Virus record (IMG/VR): IMGVR_UViG_2541047844_000013
Span: 1 to 42,931 of that record
Origin: a virus
Lineage: Duplodnaviria > Heunggongvirae > Uroviricota > Caudoviricetes
Reading direction: 5' to 3' (one strand)
DNA: 42,931 bases
The notes beneath the pieces were generated by a model that was given only the letters and a program-made list of their open reading frames with translations, was not told the DNA's origin and ran no database searches. Made by a program: the position numbers and the translations under genes. Shown piece after piece: positions 1,084 to 6,301 of the stretch (within the stretch, counting starts at the first letter, position 1; each line of letters begins with the position of its first letter).

Positions 1084-1244
1084 TTTATCAGTTCGCTCCC
1101 ATCCGTACCAGTCCGCAAAATCCCCTGAATATCAAGCCTTCCGTAGATTCACAGTTCGTCATGGTTCGCGTCAGATCGTTGACAGCCGCACTCCATGACG
1201 GGTAAAAAGTGGATAAAATAATTTTACCCACCGGATTTTTACCC

Positions 1245-2402
1245 ATGCTCACCGTTAAGCAGATTGAAGCAGCAAAGCCGAAAGAAAAACCATACCGCCT
1301 TCTCGATGGTAATGGCCTGTACCTTTATGTCCCTGTGTCAGGGAAAAAGGTATGGCAGCTTCGCTACAAGATTGACGGTAAGGAGAAAATCCTGACCGTC
1401 GGGAAATATCCGCTTATGAGTTTGCAGGAGGCAAGGGATAAAGCATGGACCGCGAGGAAAGACATCTCGGTTGGCATCGATCCGGTAAAAGCGAAAAAGG
1501 CTTCGTCTAACAACAATTCCTTTAGCGCCATTTACAAGGAATGGTACGAGCACAAGAAGCAAGTATGGTCAGTAGGGTATGCGACTGAACTTGCAAAAAT
1601 GTTTGATGACGACATTTTACCTATCATCGGCGGCCTTGAAATTCAGGATATTGAGCCGATAAAACTGCTGGAAGTAATCCGCAGATTTGAAGATCGCGGT
1701 GCAATGGAGCGAGCCAACAAAGCCCGCAGAAGATGCGGAGAGGTTTTCCGTTACGCTATTGTCACTGGTAGGGCTAAATATAACCCGGCACCTGACCTTG
1801 CTGACGCCATGAAGGGATACCGCAAGAAGAACTTCCCGTTTCTCCCAGCAGACCAGATCCCTGCATTCAACAAAGCACTGGCAACATTTTCAGGAAGCAT
1901 CATATCGCTCATTGCGACCAAAGTTTTACGCTACACAGCCCTAAGAACGAAAGAGCTTCGCTCCATGCAATGGAAGAACGTCGATTTTGAAAACAGGATT
2001 ATCACTATCGACGCCAGTGTGATGAAGGGCCGCAAAATTCATGTGGTCCCGATGTCAGACCAGGTGGTTGAACTTCTCACTACGCTAAGCTCAATCACCA
2101 AACCAGTCTCAGAGTTTGTTTTTGCCGGGCGCAACGATAAGAAGAAGCCAATCTGCGAGAACGCGGTTCTACTTGTGATCAAACAAATCGGCTATGAGGG
2201 TCTGGAAAGCGGTCACGGATTCAGGCATGAATTCAGCACGATTATGAACGAGCACGAATGGCCTGCTGACGCTATTGAAGTGCAACTTGCACATGCCAAC
2301 GGCGGATCTGTGCGTGGAATTTACAACCATGCTCAGTATCTCGATAAGCGCAGAGAAATGATGCAGTGGTGGGCGGACTGGATTGATGAAAAGGTGGGCT
2401 AA
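1245..2402 (+). CDS. intS: Tyrosine integrase, P4 family (IntS-like); the upstream in-frame ATG at 1209 is less likely
   Basis: 385 aa from MLTVKQIEAAKPKEK; N-terminal arm-binding domain and C-terminal catalytic domain pattern; sits immediately 3' of argW as intS does in K-12 KplE1. Confidence 0.88.
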   Translation: MLTVKQIEAAKPKEKPYRLLDGNGLYLYVPVSGKKVWQLRYKIDGKEKILTVGKYPLMSLQEARDKAWTARKDISVGIDPVKAKKASSNNNSFSAIYKEWYEHKKQVWSVGYATELAKMFDDDILPIIGGLEIQDIEPIKLLEVIRRFEDRGAMERANKARRRCGEVFRYAIVTGRAKYNPAPDLADAMKGYRKKNFPFLPADQIPAFNKALATFSGSIISLIATKVLRYTALRTKELRSMQWKNVDFENRIITIDASVMKGRKIHVVPMSDQVVELLTTLSSITKPVSEFVFAGRNDKKKPICENAVLLVIKQIGYEGLESGHGFRHEFSTIMNEHEWPADAIEVQLAHANGGSVRGIYNHAQYLDKRREMMQWWADWIDEKVG

Positions 2403-2493: not shown

Positions 2494-2793
2494 CTACGAT
2501 GCAAGAATCCATACCAATAAGCATCCGATAATTGGGAAAGAAAAATCCAACAAACTTCCCACATCCCACACGCGTGGATCAAAACCTCCCCACCACGGCA
2601 TGTTGACACGTTTCCCTTTCCCAAACTTTTCTATCCAGCGATATTCTGCCTGGGTGTGTTCACGCGCAATGAAGAACGTACAACCGGCTATCGCACCGTA
2701 AGCCCAGTTTCCGGTAAAAATACCAACCAGTACCTGAGCCGCAAAAGCGCAAAGCGAGTGAAGAAATGGAGTGACATCAATGCTCTTAATCAT
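2494..2793 (-). CDS. Small hydrophobic membrane protein, unknown function (occupies the oac/gtr lysogenic-conversion position)
   Basis: 99-aa ORF with hydrophobic N- and C-terminal segments; located between int and tailspike; no family recognised. Confidence 0.4.
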
Positions 2794-4847
2794 GAAACTT
2801 CCCCATTGGTTGAAAATATGGCTCCTCCAACTCCAAGTGTATTTCGTGTTGTGCTCAACCTAAGAGGGCTGGAGTCAGAATTAGAATATCCTGTAGCAGA
2901 AATAAAAGATCCTCCACTAATAGTCAACTGCGGAACATCGGCTATATCTGAATAAGTTCTGTCAGCAACAGTATTATTTATAGCCACATGTGATCCAAAA
3001 AAACTTCTTATTGTTTGGTTTTTAACTTTACTTCCTTCAATGGTTATCCTACTACCACAGTCAGCAATAAATCCTGAATCTGCATCCAGCGTTGCATTCA
3101 TAAAAGAAGCTTCAGATCTCTCTACATCAATCCATCTAATATCTTTTGTGGGATTTGCACCAAATACATGACAAATATTAGAGTTAAACCTTACACCATC
3201 TTGGAGGTGCATTAATTTTTTTATATCTGTACCCCATAGCCTTGGAAAATTAACAGATGCTCCTGCATGGCAATCAAATCCCAACTCAGCCCCTGAGATA
3301 TCTACAGCCTTTCCTGAAATAACAGCACCAGTGTCTGCATTAACGGCTGTTCCACAATTGCGCATATCATTACCAGCAATATCAACACAACTCGCACCAT
3401 CAATACGCACACCAAGTGCACATCCATAAAAACCTTTTTCAATATTTGGTTCAAGGACTTTACCACTTGTTTCTGCATCACTTTCTTCAACGTCATGTCG
3501 TCTTGCATCAACATATGCTGTATGAATGCAGGTTAATCCACGATATGAGCAATGTATAGTTTTATGGTCGCGTATATTAACATTTGAACCATCTCTTACA
3601 TTCCATCCTATATAACAATAGCTTGCACTTGACCCCTGAAAATCTGCTTTAACATTATAAATACAATTAACTGACGCAACCGTACTCTCTGTGCACCGTT
3701 CAAACTTGCTTACAGGCATTGATGCCTTGACATTATTTACCAGTTGCAGGGAAGAGTATCTGCTATAAGAAAAATCACATACGTAATACCCTTCTGGCAT
3801 ATATGCAGCAACACTTTCCTCATCAGGAGCACATCCGGTATGATATGCACTAATTTTTGCACCAAAGCTACCATGAATTCCAACGTAGAACTTTCGAGCA
3901 CCTGAATACGGATAGAAATTAAGTTCAGCTTTTTGAGTTACAATAAATGCACAAACATCGCTATCATCTCTATTTTCTTCAATCTGAATAGCAAATACAG
4001 GACTTTTTGCTGCATCGCAAATGTAAAATAAATATTTGTATTCGTAATACGTCCTAACAGTTTTAGTAAACAAACTGGTATCAGAGAAAACCACTGAGTC
4101 TTCTGATATTATTTTAATCCATGATAAGTCACATCCTGCTGAAATTTCTATTTGCTCATTGAGCACAAAACCGGAAAGAATTTTAATTATGCAAAAGTCA
4201 ATGCCATTTTTCCATAGTGGACGCAGTGCAACAGCCGAGTTTAGAGCATCACTAATAGATTTAAAATTACCATATTCCCCAACTGTTATTGTGAATGCAT
4301 ACCTGGAATTAAATACTGCGGCACTCTCTCCAGAGTTAATAGCTGCAGATATCATGTCATAATTTGATATAAAATCATTTGGCGTGATTATTTCTGCGTT
4401 TTTATTGTGCTGTGTTCTAAGTTTTGAATTTACATGAACACTTTTAACTGCAATACGGGAGTCGTCAACAAGTATTTCATTACCCTCTGTTGCTAACTCT
4501 TGTCTTAACTGATCCGGGTCATACTTCAGCACATTCGGAAAATTGAACTGCTGTGCACCATACGCATCATAAACAGCCATAGAATGGCCTTGCTCAGTTA
4601 CGAATTTGGCAATCTGTCCGTTATATACAGGATAACCAGCAGCGTTAATGATGATTGGTTGCGAAACAGGAACGTGAGAGCCGTCTTCGTTCTCTACATA
4701 AACCTGAATCTGGTTTTCAGGATTTACCGGGTCAGTGTCAATTTTACCGATATAAATTTTGCCATTGGCTACGGCTTTAAAAGAACGCGCCATAGTGAAG
4801 AGTTGCGAAGGCATACTCACTACAACATTGGCTGTAATGTCTGTCAT
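2790..4847 (-). CDS. Tailspike protein: P22 gp9-like N-terminal head-binding domain fused to a different receptor-binding/depolymerase domain
   Basis: First ~110 aa ([43 protein letters not shown]...VLKYDPDQ) match P22 gp9 N-terminus from memory; the remaining ~570 aa do not resemble P22 gp9. Confidence 0.88.
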
Positions 4848-4915
4848 TTAATTTGCTCCAGGTACAAGGAATCGCCGCAGCATTGCCACAGTGATGCATT
4901 ATTAATCAAACAAAG

Positions 4916-4930
4916 AGACCACTGTGGTCT
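4916..4930. promoter_or_regulatory. Candidate Mnt operator: 15-bp inverted repeat AGACCAC-T-GTGGTCT between mnt and tailspike
   Basis: Perfect 7-bp arms around a central base; resembles the P22 Omnt CCAC-GTGG core as I recall it; lies in the 146-bp divergent intergenic region. Confidence 0.5.
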
Positions 4931-4993
4931 TATTGAGGATGCAACCAGCAGATAATAAGATGCCGATCCACTCACAAAAGCGAGGCATCAAGA

Positions 4994-5245
4994 ATGGGAA
5001 GAGATGACCCGCAATTTAATCTGCGGCTACCTTACGAATTAAAGGAAAAACTAAAACAGCGAGCCAAATCCAATGGCCGCTCTCTTAATTCAGAATTAGT
5101 TCAGATAGTGACTGATGCTGTATCAAAGCCATCCAAAATTTCAGGCTATCGAGACGATGCGGAACGCATCGCTGATGAGCAGTCTGAACTTGTTAAGAAG
5201 ATGGTGTTTGATACGCTGAAGGATTTGTACAAAAAACCCACCTGA
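4994..5245 (+). CDS. mnt: Mnt repressor (ribbon-helix-helix, Arc/Mnt family)
   Basis: 83 aa; MGRDDPQFNLRLPYELKEKLKQRAKSNGRSLNSELVQIV...ERIADEQSELVKKMVFDTLKDLYKK is near-identical in pattern to P22 Mnt; Gln at the position of Mnt His6. Confidence 0.85.
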   Translation: MGRDDPQFNLRLPYELKEKLKQRAKSNGRSLNSELVQIVTDAVSKPSKISGYRDDAERIADEQSELVKKMVFDTLKDLYKKPT

Positions 5246-5259
5246 AGGTGGGTCCTATT
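5236..5259. terminator. Bidirectional rho-independent terminator between mnt and the convergent lipoprotein gene
   Basis: Hairpin ACCCACC-TGAA-GGTGGGT flanked by A6 upstream and a T-rich run downstream, so the complement has a U6 tract; overlaps the mnt stop codon. Confidence 0.55.
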
Positions 5260-5261
5260 TA

Positions 5262-5681
5262 TTAGTCTTGCTTTGTTGATGGTATAAGAGATGCGTTTGC
5301 CTCTTTTGGCTTCAAGGTATACATCCCACCATTAAAAGGATCTACAGCAAGCCAACCAATTAACCCACCAAACACAAGGTTTCCACCAATATACCAACCA
5401 TTAGCATTGGCTTTGATTGGCAGGGTAACTGGTTCGTACCCATCCTTTTCCATAGTGATCTGGTAGCTCTTTTTGCCAAAATAACTACCATCTGACTTGG
5501 CAAGAGTTACTCCTTGCGGAGTCTTACCTTGCGCAACAATCACGCCGGATTCGTCTTTTACCTTAAAGCTCGCACCGGAAGGATTGCTGTTCACTTGCAC
5601 AAGCTGTGTTTCGTCACCAACAATAGTTGCGCACCCAGATAACAATATAGCGCCAGCAACGACGCCGATAATCCTCTTCAT
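5262..5681 (-). CDS. Lipoprotein, PEGA-like domain, unknown function (accessory gene)
   Basis: Signal peptide with lipobox LLSGC; PSGA motif; 139 aa; in the immI-equivalent region between the ejection genes and the tailspike. Confidence 0.6.
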   Translation of the reverse strand: MKRIIGVVAGAILLSGCATIVGDETQLVQVNSNPSGASFKVKDESGVIVAQGKTPQGVTLAKSDGSYFGKKSYQITMEKDGYEPVTLPIKANANGWYIGGNLVFGGLIGWLAVDPFNGGMYTLKPKEANASLIPSTKQD

Positions 5682-5815
5682 ATTACTTTCCGTTTTGTTA
5701 GAATCAGAAAGATCTTAATAATAAAAAGTATTTTCGTGAAGATATTGTCGATTGAGTTAATAACTCATTTACACCCAACAGTGCCATGATGGCAAAGATA
5801 AGGAGAGTTAATCAT

Positions 5816-6301
5816 ATGAAAAAATCACTGTTAATTATCCCGCTTCTGCTGGCAGGGTGTGCAAAGGTTAGCGACTATCAGGCAAGTTGCGAACAACGCT
5901 ATCCAAAGCTTAGCGATATGGCTAATTGCCTTGATGCTAGCGTGAAGAGCGACTCACGCATGGCATCAGCACCAACACCTAAGTTGTATGTCCTTGCTGC
6001 GAAGATGCTCGGGCAAGGTGTCGATGATGGCAAGATAAGTGACGCGCAGGCAAGACTTGAGCTTCAGAATCTTTATGTTCAATTACAAAGCCAAGAACAA
6101 GCCCAACAAATAGCACAAAGCCAAGCATTCCAGCAGGCTTTATTGAATTATCAGGCTGTAAACACAATGCAAGCTATCGAGCAAAAAGCGCGCCAGCCTG
6201 TTATAACTCAACCTTACCCAACACGCGTTGACACTTACACAAACTGCAATTCAGGGTTTGGAAATACAGTCACATGCAACAGTAGCAGTAACATCAGATA
6301 A
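5816..6301 (+). CDS. Lipoprotein with Q-rich central region, unknown function (accessory gene)
   Basis: Start chosen at MKKSLLIIPLLLAGC (lipobox LAGC) with AAGGAGAG Shine-Dalgarno 8 nt upstream; divergent from the 5262-5681 gene. Confidence 0.6.
   Translation: MKKSLLIIPLLLAGCAKVSDYQASCEQRYPKLSDMANCLDASVKSDSRMASAPTPKLYVLAAKMLGQGVDDGKISDAQARLELQNLYVQLQSQEQAQQIAQSQAFQQALLNYQAVNTMQAIEQKARQPVITQPYPTRVDTYTNCNSGFGNTVTCNSSSNIR

Follow-up and report, generated by a model that had tools for sequence, protein, structure and literature searches.

The window analyzed here, i.e., the whole 42,931-nucleotide stretch of a Caudoviricetes genome (IMG/VR record IMGVR_UViG_2541047844_000013), contains the end of a P22-like prophage in which a gene encoding a homolog of the P22 repressor Mnt directly adjoins the tailspike gene (Table 1). 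In phage P22, mnt belongs to the immI region, organized as mnt-Omnt-Pmnt/Pant-arc-sar-ant, Omnt being the mnt operator and Pmnt and Pant the promoters of the region. An earlier interpretation of this DNA, made without database searches (hereafter the sequence-only reading), had described an orphan mnt devoid of arc and ant, had assigned a perfect inverted repeat in the spacer between mnt and the tailspike gene as the Mnt operator, and had suggested that Mnt gates an ant-less promoter feeding directly into the tailspike gene. The data presented below support the first two proposals and lead us to a different view of the third: the locus probably is a self-contained cassette in which Mnt acts on its own promoter, with the tailspike gene being transcribed from upstream.

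Organization of the locus

The homology between the Mnt protein of the window and P22 Mnt extends over the full length of the protein (76% identity). The product matches the N-terminal structure of P22 Mnt (1mnt, E=2.8e-34) and, over residues 53-83, the tetramerization peptide (1qey, E=3e-12), so that a tetramer assembled through the same C-terminal helix is predicted. Both halves are also recognized by Pfam above the cut-offs, as an Arc domain (PF03869, E=2.8e-22) at the N-terminus and as a Repressor_Mnt coiled coil (PF11423, E=2.2e-18) at the C-terminus. As in P22, the gene is located between a gene 16 homolog and the tailspike gene, in antisense orientation with respect to the late operon, and homology to P22 gene 9 is seen in the tailspike N-terminus and 5' leader. 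The only companions of mnt in this interval are two moron genes of unknown function.

The other components of immI were searched for across the whole window. With P22 Arc as a query, tblastn retrieved mnt itself as sole match. The two repressors belong to the same fold family: the Mnt of the window matches Arc structures with E about 1e-6, and its β-strand segment PQFNLR is exactly that of Arc residues 8-13, P22 Arc being a 53-residue protein without the tetramerization helix of Mnt. The 146-bp spacer holds no arc open reading frame (ORF) divergent from mnt. With P22 Ant as a query, tblastn gave no match at E<=1e-3, other antirepressor families not having been searched, and alignment with P22 showed that the DNA encoding sar, at the arc-ant junction, is absent from the window. 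An Rfam scan of positions 4600-5500 returned nothing relevant, the only match being below threshold and located on the terminator that overlaps the mnt stop codon. Judged from these comparisons, the locus is an mnt-only, reduced form of the P22 immI region, devoid of arc, sar and ant.

Table 1. Features of the prophage end, with positions in the window
Feature	Position	Strand	Description
Integrase gene	1209-2402	+	Part of the P22-like prophage end
Tailspike gene	2790-4847	-	Divergent from mnt and the final gene of the late operon; residues 1-112 match Pfam Head_binding (E=6e-64)
mnt-tailspike spacer	4848-4993		146 bp
Tailspike mRNA leader hairpin	4872-4894	-	25-45 nt upstream of the start codon; shared with the gene 9 leaders of P22 and epsilon34
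Mnt operator (predicted)	4913-4933, centre 4923		21 bp; perfect dyad AGACCAC-T-GTGGTCT at 4916-4930
Pmnt homolog	4933-4961	+	-35 TTGAGG 4933-4938, 17 nt, -10 TAAGAT 4956-4961; predicted start ~4968
Pant remnant, decayed	4938-4966	-	-35 equivalent TCGGCA 4966-4961; -10 equivalent TGCATC 4943-4938
Shine-Dalgarno sequence of mnt	4982-4985	+	GAGG, 8 nt 5' of the ATG; kept in all Gln-type loci
mnt	4994-5245	+	83 aa; ribbon-helix-helix N-terminal domain of the Gln6 specificity class; P22-like C-terminal tetramerization helix
Bidirectional intrinsic terminator	5236-5253	both	Overlaps the mnt stop; ends mnt (+) and moron gene 1 (-); folding energies -12.0 kcal/mol (+) and -14.2 kcal/mol (-), with UUUUUUG after the minus-strand fold
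Moron gene 1	5262-5681	-	Function unknown
Moron gene 2	5786-6301	+	Function unknown
Injection-protein genes of the late operon	beyond the moron genes	-

The palindrome of the spacer is a predicted Mnt operator

Alignment with P22 immI had been put forward in the sequence-only reading as a check of the operator assignment. We aligned the spacer to a curated P22 record in which the mnt operator, Pmnt, Pant and the arc operator are annotated. The two regions are colinear and the palindrome coincides with the annotated position of the mnt operator, a single base separating it from the -35 hexamer of Pmnt. In P22, the order is AGGTCCAC-C-GTGGACCT, A, TTGAGA-17-TATCAT and in the window, it is GAGACCAC-T-GTGGTCTT, A, TTGAGG-17-TAAGAT. 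In both phages, a dyad of 17-21 bp is thus built around the core CCAC-N-GTGG, and two outer positions of each half-site are symmetrically changed, the half-site being GGTCCAC in P22 and AGACCAC in the window. A search of the 42.9-kb window tolerating up to two mismatches retrieved this dyad alone (chance expectation, 0.06), and we calculate that perfect 7+7 dyads of any sequence, with a one-nucleotide centre, should occur ~0.009 times in 146 bp. The dyad search revealed no second operator in the prophage.

To compare repressors and operators, Mnt-encoding loci were gathered from a genome collection and from IMG/VR, and 88 were classified according to the N-terminal segment of the protein. The segment RDDPQFNLR, found in the window, defines 55 loci (35 distinct sequences), all with GACCAC-N-GTGGTC 61-65 nt before the start codon, an adjoining tailspike gene and neither arc nor ant; these are referred to below as Gln-type. 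The P22 segment RDDPHFNFR is found in 28 loci which possess GGTCCAC-N-GTGGACC together with arc and ant, and in five further loci with no recognizable operator, in which a second repressor gene is inserted upstream. As a side observation, a second ribbon-helix-helix gene (MSDRKYKNPQVNLRLP...) precedes the His-type mnt, in the same orientation, in loci L141-L144 and L161. The 600 nt upstream of mnt contain no P22-type operator in these loci, which appear to encode two tandem Mnt-like repressors.

Scanning viral contigs for the dyad retrieved 119 loci. In 73 of them, mnt is not present in the vicinity, and these seem to be fortuitous or coding-sequence matches from unrelated phages. Seven contigs (L170, L222, L233 and L291-L294) contain complete mnt-arc-ant regions with an AGACCAC-type dyad, (G)AGACCAC-C-GTGGTCTTATTGA, at the Omnt position. 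Their Mnt proteins share the segment RDDPQFNLR or RNDPQFNLR and end in C-termini unrelated to that of P22 Mnt (81-128 aa), and their Pant is intact (TTGACA-17-CAT(C/T)AT). These contigs encode tail tape measures and are siphovirus-like, akin to Salmonella S107/Oslo-like, Citrobacter, Cronobacter and Enterobacter phages. The co-occurrence of the same dyad and the same N-terminal segment in seven otherwise divergent complete immI regions is, among the comparative data, the strongest confirmation of the operator identity.

The pattern of conservation within the dyad points in the same direction. Among 29 distinct Gln-type intergenic sequences, the 12 arm positions (GACCAC/GTGGTC) show no change or a change in one sequence only, the centre is occupied by any of the four bases (T 6, G 5, C 9, A 9), and the DNA immediately to the left of the dyad exhibits many insertions and deletions. 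Invariant arms flanking a free centre indicate a dyadic site at which the protein does not read the central base pair. From position, co-variation with the repressor N-terminus in 55 + 7 loci and arm conservation, we infer that the palindrome is the Mnt operator, located directly upstream of its own Pmnt, as the sequence-only reading had supposed.

Alternatively, the palindrome could act on the minus strand as an RNA hairpin or a weak terminator. It is indeed flagged on this strand by a terminator scan, with a predicted RNA fold of -8.7 kcal/mol followed by CUUUGUUU. The T-rich tail is however missing in the Salmonella L/ST160 type and in P22, in which the dyad is equally conserved, and a single variable centre base suits a dyadic protein site and not a hairpin, whose loop must have 3 nt or more. 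As the dyad also co-varies with the repressor N-terminus, this explanation is regarded as extremely improbable. Beside the dyad, a PhoP-box-like TGTTTG was noticed by eye and discarded as only one half-site matches.

The change of operator had been related in the sequence-only reading to residue 6 of Mnt (numbering without the initiator Met), which is Gln in the window and His in P22, His6 being a known specificity determinant of P22 Mnt. Gln does replace His6, and N-terminus and operator have changed together; the residue by itself is nonetheless not diagnostic. In E. coli phage N7, which possesses arc and ant, Mnt (RNDPQFNVR) adjoins an Arc-operator-like site, ATAGTAGTACGGTGCTATCAT (L289, 1560-1600). 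The Mnt of Sf101, IME10 and VSe13 (DEAQFHLR), which is ant-less and next to a tailspike gene, adjoins (G)TACC-N5-GGTAC, located ~60-70 nt before mnt in loci L006, L007, L012, L014 and L016. Since Gln6 occurs in both classes with other operators, it does not alone specify AGACCAC, and across these sequences the operator co-varies with the whole N-terminal arm and strand. The dyad of the window is likewise unlike the P22 Arc operator (ATGATAGAAGCACTCTACTAT) despite the shared PQFNLR strand, whereas the N7 site does resemble it. At least four natural operator classes thus occupy the same promoter-proximal position: GGTCCAC, AGACCAC, TACC-N5-GGTA and Arc-operator-like. The Sf101-type and N7 operators were also seen to share with the other classes a position before TATTG.

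Promoters in the spacer

The spacer was scanned with a position weight matrix (PWM) calibrated on P22 Pant and Pmnt, with matrix values based on published promoter compilations. P22 Pant (TTGACA-17-TATATT) and P22 Pmnt score 16.8 and 14.4, respectively, and the Pmnt homolog of the window scores 11.8, against a background whose median is 7.6 and 90th percentile 9.7. It is the sole above-background promoter-like site in the spacer, and its hexamers are kept in all 29 distinct sequences. A stricter consensus scan (9-of-12 threshold, positions 4700-5400, both strands) returned no promoter-like site, Pmnt included, and the assignment of Pmnt is therefore based on the PWM and on homology to the annotated P22 promoter.

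The fate of Pant is different. In P22, the mnt operator overlaps this strong promoter, whose transcripts can reach gene 9, and it is this arrangement that the sequence-only reading had transposed to the window, with a spacer promoter aimed at the tailspike gene and repressed by Mnt at the dyad. Both hexamers homologous to those of Pant are destroyed in the window: TCGGCA-17-TGCATC lacks the -11 A and the -7 T, the bases that matter most in a -10 hexamer, and is not among the top-scoring minus-strand sites, so that by this sequence test no strong Pant is overlapped by the operator. Decay of the equivalent site is seen in other orphan loci, as TCGGCA-17-TATATC or TGTATC in the Salmonella L/ST160 type and with TAAATA at the -10 position in the Sf101 type. 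The final T of the -10 hexamer has been lost in all orphan classes and retained in both complete classes. No minus-strand site of the spacer reaches the background median, the best tailspike-facing sigma-70-like site scoring 5.9.

Two -10-like hexamers without a usable -35 are present on the minus strand, and their placement counts in favour of gating by Mnt: AATAAT (4903-4898) would set the dyad over its -35 region and TATTAT (4957-4952) would set it at about +15 to +30. AATAAT is missing in the Salmonella L/ST160 type, which retains the same operator and Mnt. A tailspike-directed promoter in the spacer is thus not supported by the sequence comparisons, and gating of the tailspike gene by Mnt, which would account for the strict conservation of the operator in cis and for tailspike transcription without the upstream late genes (see below), is considered rather improbable.

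Transcription of the tailspike gene

Expression data are available for E. coli LF82, whose Gally prophage is a close relative. Over 4700-5300, spacer and mnt share 99.3% identity with phage Gally; identity with LF82 is 99.8%. In LB stationary phase, mnt and tailspike mRNAs of LF82 are at background, and in macrophages five genes of the prophage end, including both moron genes, are upregulated 6- to 40-fold, with mnt 40-fold up and the tailspike gene showing a log2 fold change of 4.4, i.e., about 20-fold (Misson et al., PMC9928086). In macrophages as well as in culture medium, few prophage genes are as strongly induced as the Gally counterparts of the moron genes (PMC9928086). From the table of this study, we calculated that tailspike mRNA represents ~2% to 30% of the level of the upstream moron gene, depending on the condition.

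These data show that Pmnt is active and inducible in the Gally prophage. They also show that tailspike transcription is possible without the late operon. They do not place the tailspike promoter and, as tailspike mRNA rises alongside mnt mRNA and not inversely, they do not fit simple repression of the tailspike gene by Mnt. Divergent promoter-like sites of the moron genes are located at 5740-5712 (-) and 5677-5704 (+).

Another possibility is that Mnt bound to the dyad hinders minus-strand polymerases arriving from the late operon or from the moron promoter, thereby tuning tailspike input as a roadblock or attenuator. For P22, it has been proposed that the ant moron may control how much transcription from the late promoter enters the tailspike gene, with the possible participation of Mnt and Arc (Villafane et al., 2008). 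The dyad sits between the bidirectional terminator and the tailspike start, and in all orphan classes mnt is always the gene nearest to the tailspike gene. A small repressor is however a weak obstacle, and late transcription in P22-like phages is antiterminated and passes terminators. Moreover, the LF82 tailspike-to-moron mRNA ratio peaks when mnt mRNA is high. On balance, a roadblock is judged improbable.

Selection and prevalence

The ratio of nonsynonymous to synonymous substitution rates (dN/dS) between the mnt of the window and the ant-less mnt of Salmonella phage ST160 is 0.10 (dS 0.48), and 0.07-0.08 in comparisons with three other orphan copies. Against phage L, synonymous sites of the 45 N-terminal codons are saturated, with a dN of 0.09. 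The mnt ORF is intact in 55/55 Gln-type loci. If the 12 arm positions were neutral, the rough probability of all remaining unchanged at dS 0.48 would be ~0.003, a value which is indicative only, since the adjoining promoter is also conserved. Of 5426 complete E. coli genomes, 196 contain the element, and query coverage reaches 80% or more in 112 of these. Collectively, the sequence data indicate strong purifying selection on both repressor and operator.

These observations bear on the possibility that mnt and its palindrome are a decaying relic, functionless after deletion of arc and ant, an option raised for the mnt homolog of phage L (Zaworski et al., 2020). The decay of Pant is in line with it, as is the unchanged survival in macrophages of LF82 deleted for mnt, measured in one assay (PMC9928086); this lack of phenotype is nevertheless expected because ant is absent. 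A relic would not be expected to maintain a dN/dS of ~0.1 between two ant-less lineages, an N-terminal half conserved despite saturated synonymous sites, intact ORFs throughout, invariant operator arms around a centre base that can be any of four, and such a prevalence in E. coli genomes. It is therefore deemed very improbable.

A probable self-contained cassette and its possible role in trans

The interpretation that we consider probable is that of a self-contained Mnt-operator-Pmnt cassette, derived by reduction of immI, in which Mnt can reach only its own promoter, the tailspike gene is fed from upstream and any extra role of Mnt is likeliest exerted in trans. Pant, operator-controlled in P22, would have been lost along with arc, sar and ant, leaving Pmnt as the only promoter that bound Mnt can touch. 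Mnt most likely sets, and probably damps, its own synthesis; in P22, Mnt activates Pmnt indirectly. The tailspike gene would not be driven from the spacer, and polymerases would arrive on the minus strand through the moron, from the late operon during lytic growth and, in the lysogen, by leaking through the terminator of the moron gene.

Strong purifying selection on Mnt and its site implies that Mnt must do more than self-regulate. Its likeliest extra role would be in trans, at copies of this operator that incoming phages carry within a complete immI. In its most specific form, in which ant-less Mnt serves as a stand-alone defence of prophage lysogeny by silencing the antirepressor promoter of incoming same-operator phages, this proposal is possible, albeit unlikely. 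If true, the operator classes found at one position would record a contest of escape and pursuit between ant-bearing phages and resident prophages. Less likely than defence in trans is that the cassette belongs to a stress-induced island which expresses the prophage tailspike without lytic growth, as in macrophages.

Several points weigh against the self-contained cassette as proposed here. First, pure self-regulation offers no obvious reason for the selection seen. Second, the upstream injection-protein genes remain at background while the LF82 tailspike mRNA rises ~20-fold (PMC9928086), and the 2%-30% range of the tailspike-to-moron ratio is not explained by simple constant read-through. Third, consensus scans leave room for a minus-strand promoter that may be activator-dependent or weak and -10-only, and AATAAT at 4903-4898 would be suitably placed with respect to the operator. 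Fourth, complete Gln-type immI regions were found in siphovirus-like metagenomic contigs and not in E. coli genomes or isolates. Megablast of one such region against the 5426 E. coli genomes matched the ant C-terminal domain only; a sensitive search identified complete immI in 74 genomes (34 with at least 80% coverage), and the two inspected, both from among these 34, were of the P22 His-type. The operators of the Salmonella siphoviruses S137 and Oslo, kin of the Gln-type contigs, differ from the AGACCAC class. The target in trans within this host is hence a candidate only. Finally, operator binding and transcriptional effect of this class of Mnt are predictions from sequence comparison.

Comparison with known systems

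The closest counterparts of the locus are the mnt-only morons of the Salmonella phages ST64T, ST104, L, ST160 and SE1 and of the E. coli phage Gally, which share with the window the gene order, the Gln-type N-terminus, the operator and Pmnt. Differences concern the tailspike leader, 11-13 bp longer in the window than in the L/ST160 type, and the Mnt C-terminus, which is P22-like in the window and of a distinct type in phage L. The complete Gln-type immI contigs share the operator and DPQFNLR with the window, which lacks their Pant, arc and ant, and they belong to phages with a tail tape measure, unlike the P22-like prophage of the window.

The mnt-only architecture has already been published, and the locus itself is ordinary. 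Morons containing only mnt and one unknown gene have been reported in ST64T, ST104 and Para1 (Villafane et al., 2008), the region of phage L has been discussed as either a new function or a remnant (Zaworski et al., 2020), and the Gally gene, annotated as "Mnt repressor", has been experimentally deleted (PMC9928086 for the deletion). We found no published description of the matched operator class, of its occurrence in complete immI regions, of the decay of Pant or of the selection; these are incremental additions. With them, the remark found in the literature, "another function or a remnant", becomes a testable question. The classes described above also constitute a natural series of ribbon-helix-helix repressors and operators useful for studies of DNA recognition. 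With a frequency of about 2-4% among complete E. coli genomes and strong induction in LF82 within macrophages, the element may have a function that matters for prophage-host biology.

Additional observations

The hairpin in the tailspike mRNA leader was examined in 14 distinct leaders with RNAalifold. It consists of a 7-bp core (-9.8 kcal/mol in the window) with variable pairs CG6/UG4/UA4 and AU8/GU5/GC1, its base changes are compatible with the tailspike-sense strand only, and it is deleted in L114, L117, L123 and L129. This hairpin is not part of the Mnt switch.

On the mnt side, an inverted repeat, GATGCC...GGCATC (4959-4989), extends from the -10 hexamer of Pmnt to the Shine-Dalgarno sequence and is kept in orphan loci of both the Gln-type and the Sf101-type, its arms being 19, 18 or 17 nt apart. 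All orphan classes, unlike the complete immI regions, have a conserved TCCAC where Pmnt transcription is predicted to start. Together, these shared sequences suggest a common origin of the orphan promoter-leader.

The products of both moron genes have lipoprotein-like N-termini by eye, and a weak PEGA domain match was obtained for the first only. There is a 4-nt overlap at the tailspike stop codon with a 99-residue hydrophobic ORF (2494-2793, minus strand), which may be transcribed together with the tailspike gene. In L107, L125-L129 and L134, an AT-rich segment of ~280 bp follows a duplicated tailspike start (ATGACAGATAT...) ahead of the real tailspike gene, and in L115, an insertion-sequence-like element breaks the tailspike 5' end.

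Lastly, this prophage end is followed by torT and torR in LF82, a different host gene (1-933) being found at the end of the window, and the tailspike of the window has 685 residues, compared to 799 in Gally. From these differences, it follows that the same mnt cassette travels with different tailspikes and apparently at different integration sites.

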